A DNA stretch of 64,000 bases from an uncultured virus (IMG/VR IMGVR_UViG_3300027747_004323) (taxonomy: Duplodnaviria; Heunggongvirae; Uroviricota; Caudoviricetes). Shown here piece after piece: positions 6,832 to 58,725 of the stretch; position 1 is the stretch's first letter, and each line of letters begins with the position of its first letter. The notes under the pieces were generated by a model. That model saw only the letters and a list, made by a program, of their open reading frames with translations, made no database searches and had not been told where the DNA came from. The stretch lies in IMG/VR virus record IMGVR_UViG_3300027747_004323. One strand, 5' to 3'. The position numbers were made by a program, and so were the translations under genes.

Positions 6832-6850
6832 GTGTATAATTCGGAGAGGA

Positions 6851-25978: not shown

Positions 25979-26731
25979 TCACAGTATGACTGCCCCGCCG
26001 ACGACGGCCGCCTCAGTGAAAGACGAACCGTGAGTCCAGACCTTCTTGTTCCTGTCGACGACGCATGAGCCGCCCTTGAAACTGAGGTCTCTCTCCTTGC
26101 CTACTCTGTTGGACACTACGACGTTCGCAGAAGTCTCTTCTGCGAGTTCGACCCACGACGAATCAGGATAACCGTAATCGGAACCCCAATTGGTGAGAAG
26201 TGCTATCGTGTCGACAGACCCCTGCTTGTAGAAGCGTTGCTCCGATTTGTAGAATTTATACGTGTCCCTGTAGTTGTTCATCACGTCGCGGCAAATGAGC
26301 ACGCCGAGGCGCCCAGCACGTGTGGTGACCACGGGATGCATCGATTCAGATGCCACGGACCAGAGGTTATCGGACCCCCACAAGTTGTGCTTCTGGCAGT
26401 TGGCGACGAGACCCGAGGGTCCGACGACAGCAGCAGAGTTGTACAGCTTGCCTTCGCAGACTTCAACGTAGCCGAAGACGATGTGCGTGTTGAAGCGACG
26501 TGCGATGGGAAGGAAGGCTTCGGTCTGAAATCCTCCCTTCTGTTGTGCACAGTCGGCAGCCTCCCGCGAGTTCTCGAGGACGTAGCCGCTGGTGCACAGC
26601 TCTGGGAGGACCACCAGAGCTGCACCTTTGCCTGCCGCCTCGAAAGCCATCTGTTGTGCAGTCTTCAAGTTGGCATACACGTCGTGTATCACCGGCTTGA
26701 ACTGCACTGCTGCTACGATGGGTGTCTGCAT
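25979..26731 (-). CDS. carbon-nitrogen hydrolase (nitrilase superfamily)
   Basis: Glu-Lys-Cys triad: LPEL, QKHNL, LICRD; YNSA; GGS. Confidence 0.9.
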   Translation of the reverse strand: MQTPIVAAVQFKPVIHDVYANLKTAQQMAFEAAGKGAALVVLPELCTSGYVLENSREAADCAQQKGGFQTEAFLPIARRFNTHIVFGYVEVCEGKLYNSAAVVGPSGLVANCQKHNLWGSDNLWSVASESMHPVVTTRAGRLGVLICRDVMNNYRDTYKFYKSEQRFYKQGSVDTIALLTNWGSDYGYPDSSWVELAEETSANVVVSNRVGKERDLSFKGGSCVVDRNKKVWTHGSSFTEAAVVGGAVIL

Positions 26732-29473: not shown

Positions 29474-30048
29474 GCACCGCCTCCGCCGGCTGGGCCTGCG
29501 GCCGCGGCCTTCGGTGCCTGGAACTCCGTCTCGTCTTCCTTCTCAGACTGCGAGACTCCGATCTCGACGCCGTAGGACTCGAGTAGTTCCTCCTTGAACG
29601 TCTCCACTGCAGACTTGTCGTAGTTCTTTGCGAGGTAATTGGACGCCCTGCGGAGGATCGTGTTGCGGATCTCGAGGAGGTTGTCGTAGTTGTCGACGAG
29701 GCGCATCACGTCAGTGACGAAAGATCCGACGTCGATGTCGTCGGAGGAGAGCTTCTCTGGCTCTGCGTCCTCCTTCTCCTCGTCTCCCTTCTCTTCGTCT
29801 TTGTCGTCCTCTTTCTCGTCTTCTTCCTCGTCAGCCTCGACGAGGAATCTCCTCGTCATCATACGAAAGTTGAGGCCTTCGTTCTTCGCATTCTTTGCCT
29901 CTGCCTCGTACTCCGACAGATACTTGTCGATCTGAGCATCGAGAGAGTCCTCACCCTTCTCTTTCTCAGGCTCAGCAGCCTCGACGATTCTTGAGGTGCT
30001 TCCTCTTCGAAGGGATCGAGCCAGCTCCTTCAGCAGGGAAGTCATCAC
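29470..30048 (-). CDS. hypothetical acidic protein
   Basis: 192 aa; LLKEL leader; acidic tract after LVEA. Confidence 0.65.
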   Translation of the reverse strand: MMTSLLKELARSLRRGSTSRIVEAAEPEKEKGEDSLDAQIDKYLSEYEAEAKNAKNEGLNFRMMTRRFLVEADEEEDEKEDDKDEEKGDEEKEDAEPEKLSSDDIDVGSFVTDVMRLVDNYDNLLEIRNTILRRASNYLAKNYDKSAVETFKEELLESYGVEIGVSQSEKEDETEFQAPKAAAAGPAGGGGA

Positions 30049-30782
30049 TTCACCACCTGGGCCATCGCTTCTGCCTTCTTGAAGCGGTCCTCAATGACCG
30101 ACCAGTTGAACTCTCTCATCTGCGAAATGAGGTAGGACTTGGGATCATTGAGATAGTCCTTGTAGTACGCGTGCTCCCACATGTCGACGACGACGAGGGG
30201 ATAGAAGCCCATCGGGACGCTGCCTGCATGGTCGTCTATCATGAAGTTGACGTACTTCTTCAGGAAGAGGTGGTAGCCACAGACTGCCCAACCGCCACGT
30301 GATGCGAGGGCACACGCCATGAAATCCCTCTGCCAGTCGTCGAACGTCCCGAAGTCACGCTGTAGCCTGAGGAAGGCGAGAGAATCCATCACCACCTCGC
30401 TGTGCGGATCGAAGCAGTTTGCGAAGTACAGCTCGTGGAGCCACACGGCGTTGAGGTTCCACGTCTCGTCGAGCTTCAGCGTCCTAAACTGAGAGTGGCG
30501 ATGATTGACGTCCGATCTCTCTGCAGTGTCGAGCTCCGCCGACACCTTGTTGAGGGACTCGACGTAGTTCTTGTACTTCTCGATGTGCGCTGACTTCGTC
30601 TTCTGGGAGACGAATTCCGAGACCTGCTTGAACTGCTTCGGCTCGGCAACGTATGACTCGTTCAAAGACTCGTCGGAGGGTAGCTTCGCAGTCTCCTTGA
30701 CGAGATGTGACTGGATGGTTCTCTTGATGATACCGTCGACGTCGATGCCGGCGAGAGGATGCTTCTTGTCAATCGATTTCAT
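30045..30782 (-). CDS. sod: Fe/Mn superoxide dismutase with N-terminal extension
   Basis: AHIEKY, LHELYF, GWA, DMWEHAYY supply the four metal ligands. Confidence 0.88.
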   Translation of the reverse strand: MKSIDKKHPLAGIDVDGIIKRTIQSHLVKETAKLPSDESLNESYVAEPKQFKQVSEFVSQKTKSAHIEKYKNYVESLNKVSAELDTAERSDVNHRHSQFRTLKLDETWNLNAVWLHELYFANCFDPHSEVVMDSLAFLRLQRDFGTFDDWQRDFMACALASRGGWAVCGYHLFLKKYVNFMIDDHAGSVPMGFYPLVVVDMWEHAYYKDYLNDPKSYLISQMREFNWSVIEDRFKKAEAMAQVVK

Positions 30783-31052: not shown

Positions 31053-31478
31053 CTAACCTGTAAATATCACGTCGGCGTATCTATTGACGACTACGTCACA
31101 AGATTGGAGGATCTTGATGCCGTTGAGATCCCTGTACTCTTCGTCATAGACGACCTCTGAGATGTCGGCATTCACGATAAGCTTTGCGCACTGCACGCAA
31201 GGTGAGTGCGTGAGGTACATGATCTTCTTGCGATTGAAGTTGTAGTCACACTTGACGAGTGCATTCACTTCAGCATGTATGAAACCACTCTGTCCTGGGT
31301 CCGCCGAATCGGGAACGTTAGGTCCTCCCCTGTAGTTTCCGTTGTATCCCAGTGAGAGGAGACGAGTGTTGTCGTCTGAGACGACGATCGCTCCCACCTT
31401 GAGACGAGGATCGTAGGACCTCTCGGCCACGGTTCGAGCGATCGACATCCAGGATTCGTGCCAGGACGGTCTACGCAT
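31053..31478 (-). CDS. dCMP deaminase
   Basis: KVGA, GYNG, HAEVNA, SPCVQC. Confidence 0.92.
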   Translation of the reverse strand: MRRPSWHESWMSIARTVAERSYDPRLKVGAIVVSDDNTRLLSLGYNGNYRGGPNVPDSADPGQSGFIHAEVNALVKCDYNFNRKKIMYLTHSPCVQCAKLIVNADISEVVYDEEYRDLNGIKILQSCDVVVNRYADVIFTG

Positions 31479-31479
31479 G

Positions 31480-32058
31480 TCAGTTCTCGTGGATCTTAGG
31501 ACGCAGGTCGATCGAGATGTGATGCGAGTAGCATCTCGGCTCATAGAGCTCTGCACCTCCCACCTCGATCTCTTCGCCGTTTGTCTGCTTCTTGTGTGTG
31601 TAGTGGGCGTCCCTGCCGCAGACTGTGCACACAGCAGTGCATTTCTCGACGTGAGTCGACCACACGAGCATCTTCTCGATCTCGTGAAAAGGCTTGCCCG
31701 AGTAAGACATTTCGAGCGAGGAGACGACGATGGTGAAACCGCTCTTGTAGAGCCAGATGAGGGACTCTGCGATGCCTGGAATCATGAAGGCCTCGTCGAC
31801 CGCGATGACGTGAGGATTCTCGTCGAGGTTCGTGAGATGCTCGAGGATGTCCGCACCCGACTTGATGCACACAGCGGGAACCTTCCAGCCACCGTGGGTG
31901 ACGACCTCACTAGGACTGTATCTGTCGTCGATCAGCGGCTTGAAGACGACGACTTTCTTGTGTTGATACTTGTATTTCTCGAGAGTTGAAAGGAGTCGCG
32001 ACGTCTTCGACCCAAACATCGGCCCAGTGTAAACGATGAACTCAGGATTGCTCAACAT
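31480..32058 (-). CDS. tdk: thymidine kinase
   Basis: GPMFGSKT, VDEA, AVCTVCG, VGGAELYEPRC. Confidence 0.93.
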   Translation of the reverse strand: MLSNPEFIVYTGPMFGSKTSRLLSTLEKYKYQHKKVVVFKPLIDDRYSPSEVVTHGGWKVPAVCIKSGADILEHLTNLDENPHVIAVDEAFMIPGIAESLIWLYKSGFTIVVSSLEMSYSGKPFHEIEKMLVWSTHVEKCTAVCTVCGRDAHYTHKKQTNGEEIEVGGAELYEPRCYSHHISIDLRPKIHEN

Positions 32059-32067
32059 TCTCTTACC

Positions 32068-33024
32068 TCACATGTCCTTGATCTTGTCCCAAGACTTCTC
32101 ATACCACTCGATGGTTCGATCGAGTCCGTCCCAAAACCGAACAAGCGGAACGTAACCGAGAACCGCTGTGGTCTTCGATATGTCTGCCTGTGTGTGCATC
32201 ACGTCTCCAGCACGCCACGGAGCTGTGTGGTGCTGGGCATAAGGATAGACTTCCTGGAGTTTTCCGAGCACCTCTGCGTTTGATGTCCTGTCGCCGCAGG
32301 CCACGTTGAGAGGTTCTGCGGCCAATGGACCGACGTGCTCGACTGCTCTCATGCAAGCATCGACGACGTTGTCGACGTAGCACATGTCCCGTGTCTGCGA
32401 GCCGTCTCCGTCCGATCGCATGGAGTCGCCCTTCTTGATCGCAGTCAACCATGCCGAGACCGCGGTCGAATAAGGCGAATTTCCTAGCTGATTGGGTCCG
32501 AAGACGTTGAAGAAGCGAAGGGCGACGGAATCAAGACCGTAGAGGTTGTAGTAGACCTTCATGTAGTCTTCGATGATCGACTTCTGGAGTGCGTAAGGTG
32601 ACTTTGGATCCTTGGGATACGTCGTCGGAGTCGGCATGAAGTCTGCACCGCCATATACAGAACTCGATGATGCGAAGACGAACCGTCTCGCGTTGCCGCG
32701 GCAGGCCTGCATGAGGCGCAACGTCTTCGTCACATTCGTCTCGTGTGTCTCAAGAGGAAACTCCACGGAATAGCTCACACGAGGCACAGCGGCCAAGTGA
32801 ACGACGGCGTCGAATTGCCCTGAGACGACAGCATGAAGCACGTTCGGTGCCGAGAAGTCGCTTACCAGGAAGTTGTCTGATTCGACGAATCGAGAGTCGA
32901 GAAACTCTTCGTGGCCGTTGCTCATGTCGTCCACGCCGAAGACATCCCAGCCTGATTCGAGGCATTTCTTCGTCAGGTTGCTGCCGATGAATCCCGCAGC
33001 ACCTGTGATGAGAACCTTAGTCAT
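32068..33024 (-). CDS. NAD-dependent NDP-sugar epimerase/dehydratase
   Basis: TGAAGFIG, HLAA, ASSSSVYG, YALQK, RFFNVFGP. Confidence 0.92.
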   Translation of the reverse strand: MTKVLITGAAGFIGSNLTKKCLESGWDVFGVDDMSNGHEEFLDSRFVESDNFLVSDFSAPNVLHAVVSGQFDAVVHLAAVPRVSYSVEFPLETHETNVTKTLRLMQACRGNARRFVFASSSSVYGGADFMPTPTTYPKDPKSPYALQKSIIEDYMKVYYNLYGLDSVALRFFNVFGPNQLGNSPYSTAVSAWLTAIKKGDSMRSDGDGSQTRDMCYVDNVVDACMRAVEHVGPLAAEPLNVACGDRTSNAEVLGKLQEVYPYAQHHTAPWRAGDVMHTQADISKTTAVLGYVPLVRFWDGLDRTIEWYEKSWDKIKDM

Positions 33025-33030
33025 GCGTCC

Positions 33031-33060
33031 ATTATAGGACGCATGCCTTCAAGAGTTCAC
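33031..33060 (-). promoter_or_regulatory. sigma70-like leaderless promoter
   Basis: GTGAAC-N18-TATAAT-N6-ATG. Confidence 0.7.
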
Positions 33061-33827
33061 CTCGTCTTGATCACGATTTCGACACCTTTGGGATCGGTGG
33101 TCAAAAAAGCCTTGAGGCGGTCGCCCTCGTAATCGATCATGACACCCTCATCTTCACTAGTGAGTTCTCCCTTGAGTGAGGACTCGAATCCCAGCTTCTT
33201 CATCACCTCGTCGCAGTACAAGGCAATCTGATCCAGCATGGCGAGCTGTTTCGATGGCACCAGGACCCTGACGTTGACAGAAGTCTTGCTCAGCTCTTCG
33301 ATGGTGACCTTTGATCCCTCAGACTCAAGGTCTTTCTTGATCGCGGAAGCGACGGCCATCTTGTCGGTGGGTGAAGGAGGTGCCGCAGTGACCTCCCCGC
33401 CCTTCATGACGGCGACGACCTTCTTTGCGAGAGCGCCCGCGTCGATCTTCTTCACTCTGCGGCCGGGTTCATAGTTCATCGGATTGAGGAATCCACCTAC
33501 CATGTCAAGGACGGCATCGTGGACGTAGTACTCGACCATGCTGAGCCATTCGTCCCTTCTGTCGACGGGGTCCTTGATGCCCCTCATCTCTGACTCGATG
33601 TTTGACCAAGCGTCCCACATCGCTCCGAAAACCGGACCGCCCTCGTAAGAAGTATCTGAAGCCTCGTCGACGAGGTCTTCCGGGGCCCCTGCGGCCGTGA
33701 GTGCTGCAGAGAACACATTACGAAACTTCATGAAGCTGTCGGGCGGGGAGGCAGCAGCCTTCGCGGCTTCGGCGATTTGCCTCTTGACAGAGGCACGAAT
33801 CATTCGACGGAGTTCGTTGAGAGTCAT
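33057..33827 (-). CDS. leader-motif hypothetical protein
   Basis: MTLNELRRMIRASVKRQIAE; ATACTTA 5 nt upstream. Confidence 0.7.
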   Translation of the reverse strand: MTLNELRRMIRASVKRQIAEAAKAAASPPDSFMKFRNVFSAALTAAGAPEDLVDEASDTSYEGGPVFGAMWDAWSNIESEMRGIKDPVDRRDEWLSMVEYYVHDAVLDMVGGFLNPMNYEPGRRVKKIDAGALAKKVVAVMKGGEVTAAPPSPTDKMAVASAIKKDLESEGSKVTIEELSKTSVNVRVLVPSKQLAMLDQIALYCDEVMKKLGFESSLKGELTSEDEGVMIDYEGDRLKAFLTTDPKGVEIVIKTR

Positions 33828-33842
33828 GCGTCTAAGTATTCT

Positions 33843-34838
33843 TCACTTCTTCCAGAAGTCATACATTCCCTTGGCGACCTCGTATTTCATCATCTTGACG
33901 GGACGTGGCGGCTGCTCCTTCGCCCAGACGAACATCTTCTCGACGAGGTCCTCAAAGTCTGTGTCGTCTACGAATCCCAGGTCTCTCTTCGCCTTTGTGT
34001 GGTCGCAGTAGGCGTGCTGCACCTCGTCACGAGGCTCGAGGTGGACTATCGCCACGTCGTGTCCCAATTTGGCCGCGACGCGTCGGAATCGAGAAGCCGC
34101 ATCGGCGATCGTCATGTGTGAATCGGCACCCATGTTGTACGTCTCACCGTCGCCGGCATTCATCAAGGTCTCAAAGGGCGCCATGTAGTACTTGATGTCT
34201 GAGAACGACCGCGTCTGTGAGCCATCACCGAAGACTGTGATGGGCTGACCCGACAATGTCTGTCTAATCCAGATGCCTAACACATTCCTGTATTTGTCCC
34301 AGATATTCTGGTGTACTCCAAAGACGTTGTGCGGACGCACGACAGTGTAGTTGAGACCGAAGAGCCTGTGGGCCTGCTTCAGGTCCAACTCCACAGCATA
34401 CTTTGCGATGCCGTAGGGATCTTCAGGCATCGGCACAAAGTCCTCGACGTAGGGCGGGTGATGATGGCTTCCGTAGACGTCCATGGACGACGTGAAGACA
34501 ATCTTCTTCGAGTCGTGATTGACGCACGCATTGATCACGTTTGCAGACCCCACCACGTTGTTCGAGTAGTTGAAGCTCCTGATGAAGGGACTGAGCCCCA
34601 CCGCAGCATAGGCAGCGAAGTGATAGACGTACTGGGGTCTTCGTGTCCGAAATGCCTCGTCGACCGCGGACGAATCGACGAGGTTCACCTCCAAGAAATC
34701 GAGTCGTTCGTCGAGGTTCTCTCTATAACCACCACTCAAGTCGTCGATGCCCGTCACCGTGTGACCGCGGTCGAGAAGGTGTCTCGAGAAATGACTTCCT
34801 AGTAGGCCTGCCACGCCTGTGATCAATACACTCGCCAT
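33843..34838 (-). CDS. NAD-dependent NDP-sugar epimerase/dehydratase
   Basis: TGVAGLLG, HFAA, TSSMDVYG, YGIAK, RPHNVFG. Confidence 0.92.
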   Translation of the reverse strand: MASVLITGVAGLLGSHFSRHLLDRGHTVTGIDDLSGGYRENLDERLDFLEVNLVDSSAVDEAFRTRRPQYVYHFAAYAAVGLSPFIRSFNYSNNVVGSANVINACVNHDSKKIVFTSSMDVYGSHHHPPYVEDFVPMPEDPYGIAKYAVELDLKQAHRLFGLNYTVVRPHNVFGVHQNIWDKYRNVLGIWIRQTLSGQPITVFGDGSQTRSFSDIKYYMAPFETLMNAGDGETYNMGADSHMTIADAASRFRRVAAKLGHDVAIVHLEPRDEVQHAYCDHTKAKRDLGFVDDTDFEDLVEKMFVWAKEQPPRPVKMMKYEVAKGMYDFWKK

Positions 34839-34847
34839 GATCCAGCA

Positions 34848-35753
34848 TTATACAGCATCACGACGCACGTGGAGGCTGTCGAACTGAACGACGAGTCTCA
34901 CTGAGTTGACAGCCCAGCCGAAGGTCCGAGGAATTTCGGTGGAAAGGTGGGCAAGGAATCGAAGGTCGAGTGTACCGTTCTTCACGGAGTCCGTGCTCCT
35001 CAGAAGACTGATGACCTTGAGGTCGCCATCACGAGGCAAGAAGTGTATCGAAGAGATGCACGTGTCGCTGTGGTAGTAGAACCGCCTCGAGTCGAGTCCT
35101 TGTGGCGCTCCATAGGGATTTTTCCCTGACATCTCGTCGTGGATCACTTCCTCGCACGACTTGAGGATGTCCAAGAAGTACTCGCCTTCGTGGGGATCGT
35201 TGAGGATGGAGGGATCCGTGTACTGAGGTGGGACGTCGAACTCCACGCGTGCCTGCACCTCTTGGTCCTTTGACAGGAAAGTACAGTGTCTAATCGTGTG
35301 ACCAAACACCCCCGGAGATTGTTCCGAATATTCCTGGATGTCCCTGCTGACTTCTCGTGCCTGGTCCGACAGGGAAGCGTCCCTCGAGAGGACGAGGACG
35401 TTGGGAAGTGCGATGATCTTCGAGACCTCTTCCTGGAAGATCCTGTAGAGTTTCAAGAGCGAAGCGTCGTCCTGGAACTCGTCGCCTCGTGAGCGTAGTC
35501 TCTCGAGGACGACGTTGACAGGAGGCATCAGGACGACGAGGAAGTTGTTGAGATCACAGAGCTCTTCGCGGAGGGCAGCTCGATGCTCCGCCTCAGGCCG
35601 TCCGTAGAGACGCGCATAGCACAGCATCGAGAGGAAGGACCGGTCTTGAATGTTGTACTTGAACTTCGTTTCCTTGTGCAGGGCTGAATAGAGCGAAGTC
35701 TTGCCGCTGCAGTCCGGTCCCTCTAGAATGACGTATTTGATCGGAATGTTCAT
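34848..35753 (-). CDS. dNMP kinase fused to a thymidylate synthase-fold (dCMP hydroxymethylase-like) domain
   Basis: P-loop EGPDCSGKT and DRS; C-terminal SRR...CISSIHF...RSTD...D...SLHV. Confidence 0.78.
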   Translation of the reverse strand: MNIPIKYVILEGPDCSGKTSLYSALHKETKFKYNIQDRSFLSMLCYARLYGRPEAEHRAALREELCDLNNFLVVLMPPVNVVLERLRSRGDEFQDDASLLKLYRIFQEEVSKIIALPNVLVLSRDASLSDQAREVSRDIQEYSEQSPGVFGHTIRHCTFLSKDQEVQARVEFDVPPQYTDPSILNDPHEGEYFLDILKSCEEVIHDEMSGKNPYGAPQGLDSRRFYYHSDTCISSIHFLPRDGDLKVISLLRSTDSVKNGTLDLRFLAHLSTEIPRTFGWAVNSVRLVVQFDSLHVRRDAV

Positions 35754-38026
35754 GCCATCTGCCTCATCTTGAAGATCGAAGTCGAGAAGCCCCACTGAGG
35801 ATCGTGTTGTGCCTTGCCTACCCACAGGGTGTAGGGTTTGATCTCCTCCTGCGGCGTGCCCCATACTCGAATCCACGCGATCCTAAACTCGTCGTCCATC
35901 GCTTTACAACGATAGAACGACTTTCCGTTCTTCGTCTTCTTCAGCTCGGCGGACGCCATGCAGAACCAGCCGATGCCCTCCGTGCCCGGCGGGATGTCGT
36001 GGAGGCGAGGCACTTCCTTCGACGCGACCTTCTCCATGATCTCGGGTGGAAAGAGGAGGTCTGCGTCGATCGTGGACGTGAGGTCGAAGCGTAGGTTGAT
36101 CTTCTCGTCACGAGTCCAGTCCTCCGTTTCTGCGAGCTCCTCGAGGAGGAAGTCGACGATGGGAATCACGGGTTCACCGGCCTTCGCCTTCTTCTTCAGT
36201 TGCGATGCAGTGAGACCGTAGAGGCCCTTTCGGAGGGTCTCGTAGTTCTTTTCCTCGGTGAGTGCGAGGAGGAGCTGCCGATGATTCGCGATGCGGCCGT
36301 ACTGGAAGTCCTCGAGGGACTCTAGGCCTTCGATCTGACACAGGGCGGAGAGCACCGTCTTGTTCACCTTGCTGTGTCTCCATTCGCCGGCGTCGTCGTA
36401 CAGCATCCCCTTGAGGTCCTTATACGGTCGGTTGACCATGATCTCCTCGACGGCGGCGTTTCCGATGCCCTTCACCGAACCGAGGGGCGGAACGAAGGCG
36501 TTGGCCTCGTCGGAGAAGTCCCACTGCTTGCCCGAGTAGTTGACGTCGTGCTTCGAGAAGCTGTATCCCAATGCCTTCACCTCGGAGATCACCTTGGAGA
36601 GCTCCTTGGGATTGGACGAGGCAGACTGCAGGATCGTGGCGAGCCAGTCCTTCTCGTAGTGGGTGTGGAGCCATGCCGCGTAGTAGGAGTCGATGGCATA
36701 GGACACGGAGTGGGACTTGTTGAAGCCGTAGAGCGAGAAGAACTCGATCTTGTCGAACAGCGCATTGGTGATGTCTTCCGAGATTCCGTGGATTTCTTTG
36801 GCGCCCTTCACGAACTTCTCGCGGAGCATCACCTTCTCGCCCGACTTCTTGTCGAGTGTGTCGAGTGACTTCTTCACGAGCGTCTTCCTCATCTGGTCGG
36901 ACTCGCCCGGTGAGAAACCGCCGAGCTCCACGGCGAGGCTCATGAACTGTTCCTGGAAGGCGATGAAGCCGCGGGTCACACCGAGCACCTTCTCGATGAG
37001 CGGATGGTCGTACTTGATGCCCTCGATGTTCTTACCGGCGTCGACGTACATATTGTGGACGTTCGCCTTGAGGGGACCGGGTCGGTAGATGGCAGTGATC
37101 GCCGCGAGCTCGTCGATCGTGTTGGGATTCGCCTGCATGCAGAACTTCCGGGCTCCGCTGGCAGTGAACTGGAAGACGCCGACGAAGCGACCTTCCTGGT
37201 ACACGTGCTTCCACACCGCGGGGTCGTCCTGCTTCACGTATCGACAGTTGAGGTGCTTGTCGAAGAACGCCTTGACGTCGAGGAACGTCGGATCGGGATT
37301 GCCCTGCTTCACGAGGATGCGTCGGATGCAGTTCTCGACGTCCTTGAGGAGGGTGAGTCCCAGGAAGTCGAACTTGAGGAAGCCGTTGTCCTCGAGGTTG
37401 CGGAAGTTCATGCCCTCGGTCCACGGAGTCTGAAGCTCGCCGCGGACGCCGATGATGGGCATCGTGGCGGACAACTCCTCGGGATCGGCGACGAGGACGC
37501 CGCCGGCGTGACGGCCCACGGATCGGTTCTGCATGAAGAGCGTGCTGATGTGGTCCTCGACCTCCGGGTACTTCTCCATGAAGGCCTTGTACTTCGGAGA
37601 GAACCTCATACAGTCCTCGTGCTTCAGGACGAAGACGGACTTCTCCTGGTCCTCGTCCCGGGCGAGAGGCTCGACCTCCGCTTGGAGCGGGCCTGTCACC
37701 TCATTCACCTCCTCGAACGGAATGCCGTAGATTTTTGAGATGTCCTTGACGAGGGACTTCAGCTTCAGGGTGTTGAAGTTGGACACGGGAATGACCGCGT
37801 CCTCACCGAAGAGATTTCGAGCTTCCTCGATCAACACGTCTCGATCTGCAGCATCAGAGTCGATATCGGGCCACGAAGTATTGTGTGTCAGTGCAAAGTC
37901 CTTGCCTACTGTTGACACAAAAAACGTATGATCATTAGCAACCTCGATGTCGACGTATTCTTCAGCTTTGTCGCTAAAGATGACTTCTTCGATCTCTACT
38001 TCTTCAAACTCGAGAGTTGACAACAA
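35750..38026 (-). CDS. dnaE: DNA polymerase III alpha, C-terminal half, preceded by C-intein
   Basis: DIEV...HTF...THN/T then PDIDSD, HAGG, KFDFLGL, GVFQF, RPGP, YGFNKSH; likely TTG start at 38026 with SD AAGGA (track start 38077). Confidence 0.92.
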   Translation of the reverse strand: MLSTLEFEEVEIEEVIFSDKAEEYVDIEVANDHTFFVSTVGKDFALTHNTSWPDIDSDAADRDVLIEEARNLFGEDAVIPVSNFNTLKLKSLVKDISKIYGIPFEEVNEVTGPLQAEVEPLARDEDQEKSVFVLKHEDCMRFSPKYKAFMEKYPEVEDHISTLFMQNRSVGRHAGGVLVADPEELSATMPIIGVRGELQTPWTEGMNFRNLEDNGFLKFDFLGLTLLKDVENCIRRILVKQGNPDPTFLDVKAFFDKHLNCRYVKQDDPAVWKHVYQEGRFVGVFQFTASGARKFCMQANPNTIDELAAITAIYRPGPLKANVHNMYVDAGKNIEGIKYDHPLIEKVLGVTRGFIAFQEQFMSLAVELGGFSPGESDQMRKTLVKKSLDTLDKKSGEKVMLREKFVKGAKEIHGISEDITNALFDKIEFFSLYGFNKSHSVSYAIDSYYAAWLHTHYEKDWLATILQSASSNPKELSKVISEVKALGYSFSKHDVNYSGKQWDFSDEANAFVPPLGSVKGIGNAAVEEIMVNRPYKDLKGMLYDDAGEWRHSKVNKTVLSALCQIEGLESLEDFQYGRIANHRQLLLALTEEKNYETLRKGLYGLTASQLKKKAKAGEPVIPIVDFLLEELAETEDWTRDEKINLRFDLTSTIDADLLFPPEIMEKVASKEVPRLHDIPPGTEGIGWFCMASAELKKTKNGKSFYRCKAMDDEFRIAWIRVWGTPQEEIKPYTLWVGKAQHDPQWGFSTSIFKMRQMA
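37880..38026 (-). other. split intein C-terminal fragment (about 49 aa)
   Basis: Block F EYVDIEVANDHTFFV, block G THN, +1 Thr. Confidence 0.88.
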
Positions 38027-38924
38027 GATTTTTTGTTCCTTTGTAGTTTCTGAATTCGAGATTTGGAATGACATCAAACAACTCCTGAGTCTTTAGGCTG
38101 TTATAGAAATCTTTCATATAGAGCACACGAATGTTCAATCCGTCTGCCTTTAGCACTTCGAGAGCAAGCAAATTCTTCTCAAAGGCATGATCTCTTCTTC
38201 CTGCTTTCAGCTCTACATACTCGTTAGTATCTGGATGAAAGAAGTCCGGTGTGTAGCTTACTTCTGTTTCAGCGACTTTTACGGAGAAGGTCTTGTGTTC
38301 GTAATGAACTTCAATTCCTACATGATTGCAGTAACGAAAGTAGTCAGCCTCGAGCGAACTTCTGAAGTAGATTCCTAAGTCAGAACGAACGCCAGATCGA
38401 CCCCTAGAATAGAGTTTGATCTCTCCGCTTGATTGAGCTGCATACTGACACTTGCGTCCACAAAATCTTACCACAGACGTAGTGTACTTTTCAAAATTAC
38501 TACCGCAGACTTTACATGGGACTATCACTCTTGTTGCAGTTCGACTTGCATCCCTGGCACATGGGAGTGAACAGTATTTACGGTTGCTGCCTTCGATTAC
38601 TTCGAAATTTGCGCCACATGAACTGCAAATCAGAGTGACGCGCTCTTTTTCGCTTGACTTAGCATACGACCGATTTTGGCATGCTCTCGAGCAATACTTC
38701 GATTGTTTCGCTAAACTGGGCGGTAACGTGTAGTCTCTTTCACAGTAGTTGCACTTGAGCGTCATTGATGAAATTGACTTTTCTCTCCTTTTTGCACCTT
38801 TGCATTCTTTCGAGCAGTACTTCTTGTTGCAAGAACTGAAGCCTCCCTGTGTATGGGTGAAGGTGACAACGAAGTCCTTGTTGCAATGTTTGCATGTGAG
38901 AGATTTCGTGCTTGTGTTTCCCAT
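38004..38924 (-). mobile_element. free-standing putative homing endonuclease (Zn-ribbon repeats plus PD-(D/E)XK domain)
   Basis: Four CxxC...(Y/F)CxxxC repeats, FRSSLE, YTPDF...VELKAG; AT-rich; lies between the intein halves. Confidence 0.8.
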
Positions 38925-38963
38925 GAATCTTCTCCGTTATGATTCACTGGGATACGTATCATG

Positions 38964-39254
38964 TCACGGAGACTTCTTCTTGACGAAGAGCAGCTTGTCG
39001 CCCTTCTTGAGGTCGGTCGTCATAACTTCTTTCACTTCGCCAGCGCGACGGACGAGCCAGCGATGGTTTGGCGAGCATGAGAAATTCTCTCTCGAAGTCT
39101 TGATGACAGCATTGATGTCATGTCCTACATCATCTTCCTTGTCGATGACAGACTCATAAGTACCGCCATGCGTGAGGACCTTCTCTCCAAGGCCGAGGTC
39201 TTTGATGGGCTTGACTCCATTTTCTGTCAAGACAAGTGAGTCTTTCTGAAGACA
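38964..39254 (-). other. split intein N-terminal fragment (96 aa)
   Basis: Block A CLQKDSLVLT, block B CSPNHRW, ends ...DLKKGDKL...stop. Confidence 0.9.
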
Positions 39255-40730
39255 ACGGTGCCGACCGAGGAATCGGCTCCACAGGAGACCGTACGGAATC
39301 GGATCGATCTGGGTGATGCCGAGGAGGTAGTTGACGAGAGAACCGGGACCGCTGCCACGTCCGGGTCCGAAGAGGGTCCGCGTCTCGGCACGCTTGAAGA
39401 TCTTGTACATTGTCACGAAGTACGAGGCATGACCCAGGTACTTGATGTCGGACAGCTCGGACTTCGCTCGTTCGACGTACTCGGGCTTGTCCACCATTCC
39501 CTCGCGGACGAGTCCCTCCTTGACGAGGTCGGTGAGCTGCTGGAATGCGGTCCTCTCAGGAGTGTCGAGCTTCGGGAGCTTCGCCTTGACATCGACCCAG
39601 GTGTCCTCGCAGTTCTGCCAAGCGAGGTCGTGGGTCCGCTCGATCGCGTCGCGGACCTCCTCCTCAGCACCTCGGTAGAAGTCGTAGGAGTCGTACGACG
39701 ACTTGAACTCGTCCCACATCTGGGTGGCGTTCTTGGGATACAGCTCGCACTTCAGGTCCTCGAACTTGGGCAGCGCCGTCTGATCCAGCTTCGCACCCAT
39801 CCAGCCGAGCTTCTTGTAGAGCTCGCGGGCCTGCCATTTGGAGGGATCGGGATAGTGGGCATCGCAGGTGGCGATCAGCTTCACGCCGCTTCGTCGAGAC
39901 AGGTCGATGAGGTACTTGTTCACCACGTGCTGCTTCGGCAGCTTGTTGAACTGTAGCTCGAGGAAGAAGTTGTCACGACCGACCGCGTCGGTGAACCTGT
40001 CGGTGAGGTTCTGCAGCTCACTGATGATCTGATCGGATGTCTTACCGTACGCCTCGCCGCGGAGGATCGTGCCGCTGTAGATGCCGCCGAGGCACGCCGT
40101 CGACCAGATGATGCCCTTACCCCACTTTCGGAGGAGGTCGAAGTCGATGCGAGGATAGCGGTAGAAGCCGTCCTTGAAAGACGCCTTCACGAGGCGGTTG
40201 ATGTTCGCGAGACCCTCGGCTGTCTGGGCGACCGCGACAAGGTGGTATCGACGCTGCCAGTCGGGCTTCTCCTTGTAGTCGTCCGACTTGGTCTCTGCCT
40301 CGTCCTCGACGACGTGGCCTCCCGCCTCCTCTTCCTCTGCGACCTCGTCTGCGTCGACGTCCGTCCGGACCTTCGCCTTCTTCTCAGCTTCGGCCGCGGT
40401 CTTCGCGTCCTTGATCGACTGCTTGTGTGCTTCGTAGTCGAGCTTCCACTGTGCGAGCGAAGTAACAAAGTAGAACTCCACGCCGTAGAGCTGTCTGTAC
40501 TTCACGCCCTTCTTCTGCAGCTTCTTTGCCGCAGAATGTGCATGGGCGAGACCGTTGCCGTTGCCGTGGTCGGTGAGGGCCCACGCGTCCTGCCCTTGCG
40601 ACTCGGAGGTCACGAACTTCACGTGATCCTCGGGATACCCGAGGCCGTCGAATGTCGAAAATCCGCTGTGATTGTGGAAGGAAACGAACTTCTGGGGAGG
40701 GCGAATCAGATCGACGGGACGATTTGACAT
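38964..40730 (-). CDS. dnaE: DNA polymerase III alpha, N-terminal half (PHP domain) plus N-intein
   Basis: HNHSGFSTFDG, ALTDHG, GVEFY, TACLGG, DAHY, GPGRGS, GITQIDP, RFL. Confidence 0.93.
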   Translation of the reverse strand: MSNRPVDLIRPPQKFVSFHNHSGFSTFDGLGYPEDHVKFVTSESQGQDAWALTDHGNGNGLAHAHSAAKKLQKKGVKYRQLYGVEFYFVTSLAQWKLDYEAHKQSIKDAKTAAEAEKKAKVRTDVDADEVAEEEEAGGHVVEDEAETKSDDYKEKPDWQRRYHLVAVAQTAEGLANINRLVKASFKDGFYRYPRIDFDLLRKWGKGIIWSTACLGGIYSGTILRGEAYGKTSDQIISELQNLTDRFTDAVGRDNFFLELQFNKLPKQHVVNKYLIDLSRRSGVKLIATCDAHYPDPSKWQARELYKKLGWMGAKLDQTALPKFEDLKCELYPKNATQMWDEFKSSYDSYDFYRGAEEEVRDAIERTHDLAWQNCEDTWVDVKAKLPKLDTPERTAFQQLTDLVKEGLVREGMVDKPEYVERAKSELSDIKYLGHASYFVTMYKIFKRAETRTLFGPGRGSGPGSLVNYLLGITQIDPIPYGLLWSRFLGRHRCLQKDSLVLTENGVKPIKDLGLGEKVLTHGGTYESVIDKEDDVGHDINAVIKTSRENFSCSPNHRWLVRRAGEVKEVMTTDLKKGDKLLFVKKKSP

Positions 40731-41485: not shown

Positions 41486-42478
41486 TCAGGCCGGAAAGTG
41501 CTGCAGCAGGTCCACTTTCTTTGCGGCTGCCTCGTCGAGGTACTTCAGCGGGTTGTAGTCCTCGGATCCCCTGATCCACTCCAGGGTCTCTCGAATACCC
41601 TGCGACAAATCAAGTTCTGGTTTCCACCCAAGCTTTTCCCTGATTTTCTGAGAGGACAATCGGTGGTTACCGAGGTAGTCCGTCTTGGGATGCCACACCA
41701 GCCGTCCGCTCGTGCCAGGGAGGTGGGCATCGACTTCGGACACGACCTCGGACGCGGGACGGGCAGTCTCCGCCGCAACGTTCCAGTCGGTTCCCCATCC
41801 CTGACCCATGGGATCTCGGCACACGACCTCGATCGCCTTGCAGAAGTCCGACACGTGGAGGTAGTCCTTCACCTTGGTGGGATCGAGGAACATGTCGATC
41901 GAAGGTCGACCTTTCAGGGAGGCATAGATCGACTTCGCGATGAGGGAGTTCATGTCACCGAGACCTCCGAAGGCGAAGAGGGGACGCACGATCGTCCATC
42001 GATTCGCCATCGCGGTGACGATCTGCTCGGCCGCGAGCTTCTGGACGCCGTAATATGTCCGCGGGCACTTGTCAGAGGCTTCCGTGATCCACTCGTCCTG
42101 GTATTTCGGAGTATCGTAGATCACCGTCGTGCCGAGGTAGCAGACAGCCGCCTTGGCCCTGTTCGCAGCCCGGACGATGTTGTAGGTGCCTTGCACGTTG
42201 GAAAGCACAGCTTCCTGAGGATCGAGCGCGACGACGTCTGTACCTACGACGGCCGCATTGTGCACGACGACGTCGATGTCGTTACCGTAGAGAACGTTGT
42301 ACCATGCATCTTCTGAGTTCTGCCAGATGCATGCCTCCCCCGTCTTCGGAACCTTCTTGGGTTCTGCTGCGTCGGAGAAGAGCTCACCGTCAGTGACGAC
42401 CTCGTGCTTACGAGACTCGAGGACGACCTTGAGGTTGCGTGAGATCAGCCCGTTTTGGCCCGTGATGTAGAACTTCAT
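41486..42478 (-). CDS. divergent NAD-dependent NDP-sugar epimerase/dehydratase
   Basis: TGQNGLIS, HNAA, SNVQGT, YGVQK, KDYLHVSD. Confidence 0.85.
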   Translation of the reverse strand: MKFYITGQNGLISRNLKVVLESRKHEVVTDGELFSDAAEPKKVPKTGEACIWQNSEDAWYNVLYGNDIDVVVHNAAVVGTDVVALDPQEAVLSNVQGTYNIVRAANRAKAAVCYLGTTVIYDTPKYQDEWITEASDKCPRTYYGVQKLAAEQIVTAMANRWTIVRPLFAFGGLGDMNSLIAKSIYASLKGRPSIDMFLDPTKVKDYLHVSDFCKAIEVVCRDPMGQGWGTDWNVAAETARPASEVVSEVDAHLPGTSGRLVWHPKTDYLGNHRLSSQKIREKLGWKPELDLSQGIRETLEWIRGSEDYNPLKYLDEAAAKKVDLLQHFPA

Positions 42479-42496
42479 TGTACCTCCATCATAAAC

Positions 42497-42530
42497 GGCT
42501 CGGGCGGCCATTTTCACAGCCGCCCGAGCC
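42497..42530. terminator. GC-rich intergenic hairpin
   Basis: GGCTCGGGCGGC...GCCGCCCGAGCC perfect 12-bp stem. Confidence 0.55.
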
Positions 42531-42539
42531 GAAGCTATC

Positions 42540-42995
42540 TCACTCAATTTCCTTGTCGTACGGTTCGTAGAGCATCTTTCCTGCGGCCTTGCTGCGATCG
42601 AGATAATCCTCGAGCTCTTCGAATGAAGTACACACGCGTGCACCTGATCTACTCAACATGAGGTTGAATTTTGCTCCAGCTGGGAGTCCGGCGCAGAAGT
42701 AGATGATGTGCTTGTCGAAGGCTGTTGCATATCCGCACTCCATGATAGTGCCCAAGTCCTTATCGCGAGTGTTGACGACAAGGAAGTCAGATTCGCGGAT
42801 GTGTTTCAAATTACCCTGATAAGTCGCATCCTGAACCTCACGGGAAGCATTTGGTGGGCAAATGAAGATTCGTCGTGGAGACGCCATGTCAATCCAGTCC
42901 TTACGTGCCTCCATGATTTGTTCGAGTCTGGTGAGCTCGGCGTCTTGAACGGGGTTGAACCAGCCTGCGGCGAGGTACATCTTTTTGCGATTCAT
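42540..42995 (-). CDS. nucleoside 2-deoxyribosyltransferase / nucleotide N-glycosidase family
   Basis: YLAAGWF, DLGTIMECGYA, NLML. Confidence 0.85.
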   Translation of the reverse strand: MNRKKMYLAAGWFNPVQDAELTRLEQIMEARKDWIDMASPRRIFICPPNASREVQDATYQGNLKHIRESDFLVVNTRDKDLGTIMECGYATAFDKHIIYFCAGLPAGAKFNLMLSRSGARVCTSFEELEDYLDRSKAAGKMLYEPYDKEIE

Positions 42996-44042: not shown

Positions 44043-45026
44043 TTACTTACCTACCTTCCAATCGTTGTGCTGCCTCTTGATGGCATTCCAGTCTGTCATG
44101 TCTGCGTTCCACAGCTCGGTGAATCGCTTCTGTGGTCCGTTGCCGTGGGTGCCGTTGATGTCCTCGCGGGTCGACTGATAGATCGTGTCCTGTGGATGGA
44201 ACTCGAACGTGTCGTTCTTCGGGATGGGCCAGTAGAGGTTCGTGCCTCGCGACACGAACTTGTCACCTTCCTTGACGCGGAAGGTCTTGATGTAGTGCAT
44301 GTCGGGCTTGTTGAAGTCGATCACGGACGTGAACTCGGGGATCACCTTCGCCACCTCGACTGCCATGCGAGACGCGAGGAGGTTGTCGGCAGCCGGCTGG
44401 ATCTGGGTGTCCATTCGCTGGTAGATGAAGCCGATGAGCTCCTTGAGTGGGAGGCGCATGTAGTAGAACGACGTCATGCACTTCGGGAGGATGAGTCGGG
44501 CATCCATCATCGACACGACCTTCGAATCCGTCATGTCGGCATAGAGCTGCTTCGAGTCCTCGACGAGCTTCTTCCATCGAGCGTGGAACTCAGGAGAGTT
44601 CTGGACGGGCTCGGGAATCACAGCGTCGTCGTCTCGGAGGTCACGGTCGCCCGTGCACTGGGCGGCGAAGGTGCCGGCACGATGGCGGATGATGTGTGTC
44701 ACCTCCTGAAACGAGAGGCCGCTGAGACGGAAAGTGAAGCCGAGGCACTCCATGGGAGCGGGAAGCGTGCGGCCGCCGAACACGTCCTCGAGGTTCTTCG
44801 ACAGCTCACGCTGGGTGACGCCGCTGGTGGGATCGATGTCCGGGCGGTCTGCCCACGTCGCCTTGACGTAGTGCCACGCGACGTTCCAGGCCTGCTGACG
44901 CGTGGGAGCGTCGACTAGCTCCACCTTGAGGGCATCGAGGTTGTTGTGGAACTGGGTCTTCGGTTCTTGACCGAACTTGAGGACCATGGGAAGCTCAATG
45001 GGTTGAAGATCACGATTGATGGGCAT
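44043..45026 (-). CDS. divergent ThyX-fold (flavin-dependent thymidylate synthase-like) protein
   Basis: FTFRLSGLS...THIIRHRAGTFAAQ, DARLILP, QRMDTQIQ; C-terminal extension. Confidence 0.78.
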   Translation of the reverse strand: MPINRDLQPIELPMVLKFGQEPKTQFHNNLDALKVELVDAPTRQQAWNVAWHYVKATWADRPDIDPTSGVTQRELSKNLEDVFGGRTLPAPMECLGFTFRLSGLSFQEVTHIIRHRAGTFAAQCTGDRDLRDDDAVIPEPVQNSPEFHARWKKLVEDSKQLYADMTDSKVVSMMDARLILPKCMTSFYYMRLPLKELIGFIYQRMDTQIQPAADNLLASRMAVEVAKVIPEFTSVIDFNKPDMHYIKTFRVKEGDKFVSRGTNLYWPIPKNDTFEFHPQDTIYQSTREDINGTHGNGPQKRFTELWNADMTDWNAIKRQHNDWKVGK

Positions 45027-45102: not shown

Positions 45103-46044
45103 TCAAATGACGTAATCGACGAAACTGATGGGGTCGCTGCCCTCTGGGACATACACGACGTTCTTCATTCCCTCGACCTCGGCGTTGTAAGTCTTTTCGG
45201 GAACGATCACAGGCACTCCGTGTTTCGCGTATTCCGCTGCGTGCTTCGCAGAATCATCGACGGCGAAATACTTGCCGGTGGAGTAGTAGGGTTGGTCGGT
45301 GAGCCACACGTATTTCTCAGGCGTGAATGTCACGCCGTCGGCCGCGATGTCGTGCCTCGAAAGCCAGGAGTACGTGTCGTAGAAGGCGGTGAGATTGGAG
45401 GCAGGACGTGCAGTGACGATCTGGATCCAGTATCCTCTGTCCTTGAGGTGCCTCAGGAGACCCGTGTACTTTTCGTTGCGTTCGAGCAGGAGAAATCCGT
45501 GTGTGTCGATGAAGGTCTTGAAGAGGACCTCGTTGTTGAGTCCGCTCTTCTTCAGTTCTTCTGTGGCATAATACTGTTTGCTCTTGGGATCGAGAAAGCA
45601 ACCCGTCGTTTCGGTCACCCATCCACAGAATGAAGACCTGAACTCGGCGAGGACGTCGTCCATGTCGAACAGGGCGACAGGCTGTCCGGCCCACTTCTTT
45701 GTGGAAAGCTCGTGCCTGTAGTGGAGGAAGTCGTCCTTCTGCGACAAGGCGGCCTCGAAAGTGGAGGCGCCGATTCCCCAGAGGTTCAACATCGCGAGGA
45801 TGTAACGGTATGCGTCGACGGACTTGTAGAGTATCTTCTGCACGTCGACGGGATGCTTGACACCTCGATGATCCTTGTAGTTGACGCCCTCAACGATTCC
45901 GCTTGCTTCGGCGTGAAGTGCAAGAACGAACGTCTTGAGAAGCTCTTGCTTCTGCCAGTCGTCCAGCTTCTCAGGATCGAAGAAGATGTCTGAGAAGGCC
46001 TTCTGACGCCCTAGGGCTTCGTGCAGCTTCGACCAGTCGTTCAT
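45103..46044 (-). CDS. dimeric dUTPase/MazG-like domain fused to HAD 5'(3')-nucleotidase
   Basis: N-terminal YKDHR...SVDAYRY; HAD motifs FDMDDV, TAR, K, VDDS. Confidence 0.78.
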   Translation of the reverse strand: MNDWSKLHEALGRQKAFSDIFFDPEKLDDWQKQELLKTFVLALHAEASGIVEGVNYKDHRGVKHPVDVQKILYKSVDAYRYILAMLNLWGIGASTFEAALSQKDDFLHYRHELSTKKWAGQPVALFDMDDVLAEFRSSFCGWVTETTGCFLDPKSKQYYATEELKKSGLNNEVLFKTFIDTHGFLLLERNEKYTGLLRHLKDRGYWIQIVTARPASNLTAFYDTYSWLSRHDIAADGVTFTPEKYVWLTDQPYYSTGKYFAVDDSAKHAAEYAKHGVPVIVPEKTYNAEVEGMKNVVYVPEGSDPISFVDYVI

Positions 46045-46421: not shown

Positions 46422-46477
46422 GACTAAGTTCATCATACACATGGGTCAAACTGCAGTACAATCGATATTTACGGTAC

Positions 46478-57448: not shown

Positions 57449-58042
57449 TCAAGCTGGGATGCAACGGACAGTTGCGAGGATCGTCCTAATCTCCTGTGCG
57501 ACTTTCTCCTTCGACTTCTCACAGTCTACGACGTGGACCTTCTCCTCTTGAGCGTCCACCCACTTCGCGTAGAGATCCCTCACTTTTTGCTGCAGGACGG
57601 TGTCTTTCTCGTAGGCGTCCTCGGCCTCGTGGGCATGTGCCTTGCCGAGAAGGACGAGCGTGAAATCGGGACAACGTAGAAGTCGATACATCTTGTCGAT
57701 CGTGGCCTCATCGATCCCCTCGGCCATTCCGTACACAGAAGTCGAAGGACTCCACCTGTCGAAGATGATGTAGTCGTACTCGTGCTCGAGTTTGACGAGC
57801 TGGAAGCTCTGAAAAATCCATCTATTCAAGACCTGTAACCACTGGAAAGTTTTTGGAAACTTTTTCGCAGACCCATTCCGCAACATCCAGTAGATCAATC
57901 GATAGGTGACGTTGTCGTGGATCGGCACCTCGACGACGCATGCCCTCTTCTTGAGGGCTCCCGTGATGTGATCGCAGAGCATTTGGCTCTGTGTCGCCTT
58001 TCCGACACGGTCCGGTCCCTCGATGACGATGATCCTGCTCAT
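57449..58042 (-). CDS. tmk: thymidylate kinase
   Basis: IEGPDRVGKATQ, DRWSPS, PDFT. Confidence 0.88.
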   Translation of the reverse strand: MSRIIVIEGPDRVGKATQSQMLCDHITGALKKRACVVEVPIHDNVTYRLIYWMLRNGSAKKFPKTFQWLQVLNRWIFQSFQLVKLEHEYDYIIFDRWSPSTSVYGMAEGIDEATIDKMYRLLRCPDFTLVLLGKAHAHEAEDAYEKDTVLQQKVRDLYAKWVDAQEEKVHVVDCEKSKEKVAQEIRTILATVRCIPA

Positions 58043-58725
58043 TCGAACGGCTCCCTGAGAGTGCTCACATACTGTCCGTGTGGAACCATTTCCTCGAAAG
58101 TCAACTTGAACGCCTCCAGCGTGGCATCGAACACGCCGAGGTCGGACACCTGTGCGAGCATCTCGTGTGCAAGCTCCCTGACTTCGAGTTGTGCGTGCTT
58201 AGAATAGCGCAGCTTGAGAAAGTGATAGAAGCTGCGGAAGTTGAACATGACGTCTGCTGTGATCTGGTTTCCGTAGGGGAGGTAGAATCGGGCAGATTCC
58301 TTTGCCCTCTTGCGAGGCATTCCTTTCGAGACGAGTCGTTCTAGCGTCTCGTGATACTTGTGGAGAGAATACTCGAGGTGTGTGATGTACTTCTCTCGTT
58401 CCTCGGTGTCCCAATCGACAGGAACATAGTACTTGTCGTCTTTCAACTCCTTGTATCGGGCCGACTCCGCATTGACGGAGACGCCGATTCGATGCTTCAA
58501 GATGTGAATGTGTGTCGCTACGTCCGTGGTGACGAGGAAGTGCAACGCACTCTTCTCGAAGGGCGTCTCGTGACTGTTCTCAGCCAGCATCTGCAAGAGA
58601 GAAGGAATTCGGGCTCTCTTCTCTTCTGTCAAGTCTCTCGACGTCGACGTCCAAGCAGAGAGCCCGTGTGTTTCGTCGGAACCATAATGTCCGACAAGCT
58701 CTACTTTGTTTTCTTGTGCAGGCAT
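58039..58725 (-). CDS. thyX: flavin-dependent thymidylate synthase
   Basis: HETPFE, KHRIGVSVNAESARY, KESARFYLP, NFRS, LR...HAQLE. Confidence 0.93.
   Translation of the reverse strand: MPAQENKVELVGHYGSDETHGLSAWTSTSRDLTEEKRARIPSLLQMLAENSHETPFEKSALHFLVTTDVATHIHILKHRIGVSVNAESARYKELKDDKYYVPVDWDTEEREKYITHLEYSLHKYHETLERLVSKGMPRKRAKESARFYLPYGNQITADVMFNFRSFYHFLKLRYSKHAQLEVRELAHEMLAQVSDLGVFDATLEAFKLTFEEMVPHGQYVSTLREPFE

Follow-up and report, generated by a model that had tools for sequence, protein, structure and literature searches.

The 64,000-nucleotide window of a jumbo phage, part of a 126-kb virus record, encodes a nucleoside monophosphate (NMP) kinase fused to a stripped-down thymidylate synthase (TS) fold, mini-TS. 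Since mini-TS keeps cytosine-type residues and is almost always co-inherited with a divergent ThyX-fold flavoprotein (ThyX2), the two proteins likely make a modified cytosine for phage DNA. That some pathway for a modified cytosine nucleotide operates here is probable. With somewhat less than even confidence, we favor a folate-free conversion of dCMP by kinase/mini-TS and ThyX2 together, most likely to 5-hydroxy-dCMP. It is conceivable, as a provisional and broader proposal, that two unrelated TS folds were rebuilt as a two-component enzyme: a folate-stripped ThyA-type core would activate cytosine, and a ThyX-type flavoprotein, itself without its folate and methyl-transfer residues, would provide the redox chemistry. 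The product would be a modified cytosine that may not have been described before, and the system would operate in aquatic jumbo phages as well as Firmicute phages and pBS32, the phage-plasmid of the ancestral Bacillus subtilis strain.

The reading frame (34848-35753, minus strand) translates without a stop into 301 amino acids, and its ATG overlaps the stop codon of the upstream DnaE fragment (ATGA). AF2 modeled the full-length protein as two domains (pLDDT 95.6) and the C-terminal domain alone (residues 146-301, 156 aa) with a pLDDT of 95.3. The N-terminal domain has a P-loop and an NMP-kinase fold, matching PDB 2axp in a profile search (E 1.7e-11) and reaching Z 14.0 by VIA (rmsd 2.7, 140 aligned residues); the PHROGs match of the protein is phrog_761, thymidylate kinase. 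Fold and motifs are those of the SPbeta YorR kinase (PDB 2axp/3kb2), here fused to a second domain. The whole protein matched kinases alone, and no TS, in Pfam, NCBIfam, PHROGs and PDB sequences, and Pfam TS (PF00303) did not match it; TS matches emerged solely with a domain profile or a structure model. A preliminary description of this DNA had proposed a kinase fused to a TS-fold domain, and this was borne out, as residues 1-145 are YorR-like and 146-301 match the TS family only.

A search of protein collections recovered 379 homologs at E <= 0.001, and we aligned the query with 119 of the top 120, almost all of them full-length kinase/TS fusions. At 50% identity, 440 clusters pass E 0.001, some at the weak end possibly being other TS homologs. 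Members of the jumbo clade share as little as about 30% identity over the whole protein. Look-alike clusters in the ESM Atlas carried no label beyond hypothetical protein or minor TS member, a full-length homolog was absent among 50,697 annotated phage records, and we found no description of the kinase/mini-TS family in open-licence literature. Judged by these alignments, 34848-35753 is a real gene under selection. The kinase fusion is dispensable for the pathway, because the kinase is a separate gene in Geobacillus phage GR1, pBS32 and other lineages.

Table 1. Features of the window, with predicted functions and the evidence for each
Feature	Coordinates	Strand	Evidence or remarks
YorR-like P-loop nucleoside-monophosphate kinase domain, residues 1-145	35319..35753	-	GPDCSGKT, DRS, RGDE; PDB 2axp, VIA, phrog_761
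Mini TS-fold domain, residues 146-301, and stop codon	34848..35318	-	Foldseek, VIA
Arg223-Arg224, equivalent to phosphate-binding T4 gp42 Arg123/Arg124	35082..35087	-	hhalign; 120/120 close homologs
Cys232, predicted nucleophile (T4 Cys148, E. coli Cys146)	35058..35060	-	120/120, 74/74, 28/28
RSTD motif; Arg252 and Ser253 invariant, Asp255 (E. coli Asp169 position) variable	34989..35000	-	
Asp263, cytosine-type residue (T4 Asp179, E. coli Asn177 position)	34965..34967	-	119/119, 73/73, 28/28
His295 of SLH (T4 His216)	34869..34871	-	Unchanged in every homolog covering it
ThyX2, divergent ThyX-fold flavoprotein, likely partner	44043..45026	-	Pfam Thy1; alignment to T. maritima ThyX
Nucleoside 2-deoxyribosyltransferase family (NDT), likely nucleotide N-hydrolase	42540..42995	-	Pfam
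MazG/dUTPase-like pyrophosphohydrolase, likely pool control	46044-46442	-	
MazG/dUTPase-related domain fused to NT5C-type nucleotidase, likely pool control	45103-46044	-	
Phage DnaE in two pieces (38964-40730 and 35750-38077), endonuclease gene between	35750..40730	-	Pfam
NAD-dependent epimerases	33843-34838, 32068-33024	-	Downstream block 31053..34838
Thymidine kinase	31480-32058	-	Downstream block
dCMP deaminase	31053-31556	-	Downstream block
Third epimerase	41486-42643		
Canonical dTMP route: dTMP kinase (57449-58042), ordinary ThyX (58039-58725)	57449..58725	-	

Foldseek ranked AfhB (9iqu) as the best match of the C-terminal domain (TMq 0.62). By VIA, the domain matched 9iqc (Z 10.9, rmsd 3.2, 142 aligned), ThyA (Z 10.6 and 10.0), MilA (9.2) and T4 dCH (gp42; 8.7); all seven rows above Z 8 are TS family, and the next row scored Z 5.5. 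AfhB is the closest solved structure by two programs, although less than 1 Z unit separates it from ThyA, in effect a tie. The predicted fold is thus TS-like, as the preliminary description had expected. In a tree of 27 rows and 220 columns, 18 minis fell on one side of a branch with 89/83 support, under the bar; the tree identified no parent and did not place the minis with RB69 gp48.

Approximately 140 residues align across a 220-residue span of solved TS chains, with the aligned range beginning at residue 1-14 and ending at 214-231 for most. The deletion is therefore internal plus the C-terminal tail, and the earlier suggestion that the N-terminal folate-binding part is missing did not hold. 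The loop from Arg124 to Cys148 is 24 residues long in T4 gp42 and 8 in the query, the query lacks an equivalent of about 90 residues of the TS chain, and it stops 6 residues past His295, with no C-terminal tail. In TS enzymes the absent parts form the folate lid. Since these 90 residues are missing and the Asp169 position is free to vary, folate-dependent hydroxymethylation is unlikely, in keeping with the earlier remark that the chemistry may differ from that reaction.

Alignment to T4 gp42 by hhalign (probability 94.5) paired R223/R224 with R123/R124, C232 with C148, D263 with D179 and H295 with H216, and the active-site residues also mapped onto RB69 gp48. When we searched phage genomes with the domain profile, gp42 was the sole match in T4 and gp48 the sole match in RB69, and the RB49 genome gave no match. 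We then scored conservation in three sets: the best 120 close homologs, 74 more distant viral loci, and 28 rows from other lineages, which include a few proteins fetched twice. The catalytic Cys and the Asp at the E. coli Asn177 position, both placed by eye in the preliminary description, were confirmed, the Asp lying 11 residues after the RSTD Arg; both are conserved in every homolog that covers them, as the description had predicted (Cys in 74/74 and Asp in 73/73 of the viral loci). Arg252, Ser253, Asp263 and His295 are present in all 119 close homologs covering them. The proposed RSxD motif stood in part: Arg and Ser are invariant, but position 255 is D in 30, N in 28 and E in 15 of 73 viral loci, and Asn in 5 of the 28 other-lineage rows. 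Similarly, the reported absence of Tyr after SLH holds for close homologs, where the residue is Arg in 115/120, but not for other lineages, where Tyr occurs in 13/28 rows. The second Arg (Arg224) is K or Q in other lineages. At position -3 from the Cys, which would correspond to the L143 position where 5-hydroxy-dCMP synthases have an acidic residue, the query has Ser (D 30, S 16, Q 13 of 74) and at -2 Asp (51/74), in a shortened loop where the register is uncertain.

Could mini-TS have no catalytic role, and instead sense nucleotides or form part of another enzyme? The loss of catalytic loop and lid, the variable second Arg, and the presence of mini-TS beside full-size TS genes in some lineages would fit such a role. 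However, the Cys is invariant in all lineages even though identity within the jumbo clade falls so low, and we regard a non-catalytic role as very doubtful.

By these sequence and model comparisons, mini-TS is a member of the TS/dCMP hydroxymethylase superfamily that resembles a dCMP-modifying TS homolog in its residues, but is predicted to be neither ThyA, a T4-type hydroxymethylase nor a D169N hydroxylase. It shares the core sheet and helix of ThyA (VIA Z 10.6), but Asn177 of ThyA is Asp in all mini-TS homologs, PF00303 does not match, and the phage has a separate dTMP route. The R-R, Cys, RS, Asp179 and His216 equivalents are common to mini-TS, T4 gp42 and MilA. Mini-TS differs from these enzymes in its shortened loop (24 to 8), internal deletion, missing tail, free Asp169 position and Arg in place of Tyr218; the full-length chain, conserved Asp169 and tail of a T4-type dCMP hydroxymethylase are not found in it.

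The FMN-dependent 5-hydroxy-dCMP synthases (HY126 AfhB, 9iqu/9iqc; RB69 gp48; DLP3 gp80) likewise have a TS fold, the Cys, Asp at the 177 position and a SAH/SLH ending; they include the top structural match, AfhB, and, as here, have a YorR-like kinase in their clusters (PMC13326640). TS homologs with Asp177 and FMN hydroxylate dCMP using O2, Asp at the 177 position is the rule for dCMP specificity, and D169N marks the dCMP hydroxylases (Lee et al., PMC13326640). These synthases are 234-238 aa long, compared with 156 aa for mini-TS, in which D169N is not fixed. Unlike them, mini-TS has no intact cofactor-binding region, is co-inherited with a ThyX-fold flavoprotein and, in this clade, is fused to a kinase.

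The ThyX-like neighbor about which the preliminary description had a hunch gave the strongest genomic signal. In whole-record searches, ThyX2 was present in 44/49 mini-TS records, including 3/3 near-complete ones, and the five records without it are 13-22% fragments; the 49 records were drawn from 48 of the 75 viral loci plus two others, minus one. We also ran the search in reverse, with 3 genome contigs and the 80 top-ranking viral ThyX2 matches out of 235. Among the 43 ThyX2 loci that have 9.5 kb or more of downstream sequence, 41 had mini-TS (24 in the flank, 10 on contigs of already-known mini-TS loci, 7 farther away), and the other 2 end at contig ends. Since most loci belong to one phage clade, these co-occurrence counts are not independent. 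The ThyX2 stop codon overlaps the mini-TS start in GR1, L080, L081 and pBS32.

ThyX2 has the Thy1 fold of ThyX but is about 100 aa longer and scores 32.5 bits against TIGR02170, for which the cut-off is 87.9. In alignment to T. maritima ThyX (the best match is an S88C mutant), it retains RHR and the R147 and R174 equivalents and carries the substitutions H53>L, E86>A, S88>C, R90>G and Y91>D, each in 36/36 sequences. Of the RHR, S88, R90 and Y91 residues and the folate-stacking H53 that characterize ThyX, only RHR is found. In ThyX, H53 stacks on folate (PMC11940539); methylene transfer is aided by S88, R90 and Y91, and base activation depends on R174 (PMC8316439). Both proteins thus appear to have shed their folate-handling parts. 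Because these residues are lost and dTMP is supplied by an ordinary ThyX or ThyA, ThyX2 is probably a flavoprotein with a job other than dTMP synthesis; since the R147 and R174 equivalents are kept, it may bind nucleotide itself rather than only reduce flavin. We rejected ThyX2 as the phage dTMP source, as a second, ordinary ThyX occurs in 10/13 jumbo records and ThyA in G048.

ThyX2 could, alternatively, pass on a one-carbon unit, its flavin carrying a methylene or formaldehyde equivalent to dCMP activated by mini-TS, giving 5-methyl- or 5-hydroxymethyl-dCMP. T4 alpha-glucosyltransferase, a relative of which is found in the GR1 cluster, acts on hydroxymethylcytosine, and the stop/start overlaps show tight coupling of the two genes. 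As ThyX activates uracil by N3 deprotonation, which would be unavailable in cytosine, a Cys-based activator would help. ThyX can activate formaldehyde on its flavin (PMC8316439). However, ThyX2 is without the methylene-transfer residues S88, R90 and Y91 and the folate-stacking H53, and the handover would require a close complex of two proteins. We consider this transfer improbable.

The module also occurs outside the jumbo clade. Cultured phage GR1 encodes ThyX2 at 47% identity and, directly after it, a mini-TS of 151 aa that stands alone (hhalign probability 91.8). Close by are genes for a separate kinase, NDT, HD nucleotidase, nitroreductase, DnaE and a dUTPase-like protein; the GR1 cluster includes a member of the alpha-glucosyltransferase PHROG, and GR1 has no Pfam-detectable TS. 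ThyX2 and a stand-alone mini-TS are each on 41 Bacillus plasmid records, including pBS32 of NCIB 3610; the pBS32-type mini-TS had no match in GTDB contigs. In Burton et al. (PMC6751061), the zpdBCDEF operon lies under a SigN promoter, is followed by zpdG (Pol III) and has a table value of 176, read here as fold induction. As zpdC is rnhP (bioRxiv 10.64898/2026.09.10.750580), which anchors the pBS32 gene order, we infer that zpdB is the kinase, zpdE ThyX2 and zpdF mini-TS. No pBS32 particles have been seen (PMC10601692), and we found no description of zpdE or zpdF function in open-licence literature.

Two prophage-like contigs from Clostridial MAGs (L190, L192) and L088 carry kinase, NDT, HD, ThyX2, mini-TS and polymerase genes, and NDT also adjoins ThyX2 in GR1, pBS32, L088 and L190-L192. 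At L190:8482-9489 and L192:8516-9487 the kinase is fused to NDT, not mini-TS, an alternative fusion within the module; L088:7748-10633, directly after mini-TS, encodes a PolB with an N-terminal uracil-DNA-glycosylase-family domain. L083-L085 combine mini-TS with a more distant ThyX2, a full-size second Asp177-type TS and a protein that is FAD-binding-like by eye. A conserved protein of approximately 300-330 aa with a GxGxxG start and no Pfam match adjoins mini-TS at L083:7740-8735, L084:7951-8946, L085:9112-10005 and L086:8905-9855. L083, a PolB-encoding virus, has three TS-fold genes (3362-4138 and 6039-6782 among their coordinates) plus ThyX2; one has His at the Asn177-neighboring motif (RSHD...GNA). 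In T4-like L089/L090, the order is kinase, gp42-type TS, mini-TS, HAD, nucleotidyltransferase-kinase and two ORFs without a family match, which resembles the DLP3 hydroxylase cluster in having a YorR-like kinase upstream and HAD and nucleotidyltransferase-kinase genes after mini-TS (PMC13326640). In the L089:9337-16352 cluster the two unmatched ORFs are 400-470 aa long, and a C5 DNA methylase-like gene is also present. The gp42-type enzyme next to mini-TS in this lineage (G055) has RSND and Asp179, and the complete G055 record contains mini-TS and no ThyX.

These contexts bear on the main rival, in which mini-TS is a second-step enzyme acting on 5-hydroxymethyl-dCMP (hm-dCMP) made by gp42-type or other TS enzymes, or by ThyX2. 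The Cys adduct would expel water to give an exocyclic methylene, trapped by an amine, thiol or hydride, with no need of folate. NDT relatives MilB and DNPH1 hydrolyze hydroxymethyl-pyrimidine monophosphates. Another candidate C5 enzyme adjoins mini-TS or lies in the genome in each context examined (gp42-type in L089/L090, Asp177-type TS in L083-L085, ThyX2), and a second step would account for G055, which is without ThyX. Yet this rival needs ThyX2 to be the source of hm-dCMP in GR1, pBS32 and the jumbo clade, even though it lacks H53 and Y91, and no conserved donor-supplying gene was seen across lineages. We judge this rival unlikely, if worth keeping in view.

Within 10 kb of mini-TS in the 75 viral loci we found DnaE in 75, dCMP deaminase in 64, thymidine kinase in 63, epimerases in 63, NDT in 45, ThyX2 in 37 and MazG/NT5C in 29. 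The downstream block of epimerases, thymidine kinase and dCMP deaminase is syntenic in the jumbo clade. We set the epimerases aside as part of the chemistry, since 14 other-lineage loci screened had no epimerase match and the complete relative G005 has a distant island of its own with glycosyltransferases and epimerases. The adduct of mini-TS at C6 might instead activate C4, making the enzyme a cofactor-free deaminase or N4-transaminase acting on dCMP or modified dCMP: C6 addition labilizes the C4 amino group, and no cofactor pocket is required. This is a poor prospect, as a standard dCMP deaminase accompanies most of the loci, and ThyX2 and the GR1 glucosyltransferase would be left unexplained.

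Other genes of the window and its relatives are listed here as observations. Terminase-, portal- and capsid-like genes are recognizable by eye, and the complete relative G005 is 284 kb. The first DnaE piece ends in a weak Hint_2 match, and the second, read by eye, opens with an intein-like C-terminal sequence whose last residues are THN. A free-standing endonuclease gene separates the two pieces (38004-38924), and similar splits occur in several related loci. This layout resembles that of a 'fractured gene'. A PrkA/YeaG kinase, YeaH (DUF444) and SpoVR trio (4367-8794, plus strand, by eye; by Pfam in G005) is a host-like stress operon on a phage. Minus-strand genes at 25979-26731, 30045-30782 and 51274-52230 encode a carbon-nitrogen hydrolase, an Fe/Mn superoxide dismutase-like and an LD-carboxypeptidase-like protein; the second is in 57/75 loci and may or may not relate to a putative O2/flavin pathway. 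Two tandem genes with DPPF/DPPY motifs (52239-53827, minus strand) look by eye like N6/N4 DNA methyltransferases. G005 also carries a separate glycosyltransferase/epimerase island far from the locus (146/162 ORFs of 170-750 aa scanned); this island (L097-L098, about 125-150 kb) holds GT1, 2, 4, 6 and 11, epimerases, a carbamoyltransferase and sugar enzymes.

We looked for signs of modified DNA in restriction-site-like palindromes. Five jumbo genomes showed no avoidance of C/G-containing 6-bp palindromes (log2 O/E -0.08 to +0.15), compared with -0.34 for T4, -0.18 for RB69 and -2.23 for RB49, the one negative control and from a different host. The sequence tested amounted to 200 kb for each of three genomes, 160 kb for T4 and RB49 and 80 kb for RB69. 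RB49 DNA is presumably unmodified. These counts may lend slight support to protected DNA in the jumbo phages, slight because the phages also encode DNA methylases. GR1 (-0.55) and pBS32 (-0.34) avoid some C-containing sites. Selective avoidance of AT-only palindromes was rejected, as the dip is seen in RB49 too. An SP-15-like dihydroxypentyl pathway was dropped, as no such phage matched in our searches. The alpha-glucosyltransferase family occurs in only 2/46 records and in neither pBS32 nor any jumbo record.

The simplest reading remains a two-component hydroxylase, because a folate-less TS core pairs with a folate-less flavoprotein. By analogy with TS chemistry, Cys232 would add to C6 and make C5 nucleophilic, while Asp263 would select cytosine. 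Since mini-TS has no folate lid, the electrophile would come from outside: ThyX2 would supply reduced flavin, and this would react with O2 in the way it does in AfhB and RB69 gp48, FMN enzymes of a single chain. The kinase would make the diphosphate, the phage polymerase would incorporate the modified base, and MazG-like, HD/NT5C and NDT enzymes would trim competing nucleotides. Some phages, such as GR1, could glycosylate the hydroxyl on DNA afterwards; the GR1 glucosyltransferase needs a hydroxyl acceptor, which fits hydroxylation. Several findings weigh against this two-component hydroxylase. The query has Asp at the D169N position, where Asn occurs in just 28/73 loci. AfhB and gp48 hold flavin themselves, and the AfhB flavin site may be among the roughly 90 residues that mini-TS has lost. 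G055 is without ThyX, L083-L085 have a further full-size TS beside ThyX2, and the alpha-glucosyltransferase family is rare. ThyX2 may itself bind a nucleotide, GR1 and pBS32 avoid some C-containing sites, the tree does not group the minis with gp48, and one phage clade accounts for most of the co-occurrence counts.

To our knowledge, the TS homologs behind the known non-canonical pyrimidine nucleotides of phages are single chains, which hold folate or FMN themselves. If our reading is true, a cofactor-less TS core that relies on a repurposed ThyX would represent a new enzyme logic and would show what the smallest catalytic unit of the TS fold is. It would also suggest that DNA is modified in a phage group that is widespread and uncultured. 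As the module is present in cultured GR1 and, by gene order, on pBS32 within the SigN-induced zpdBCDEF operon, the pathway is testable in laboratory strains.
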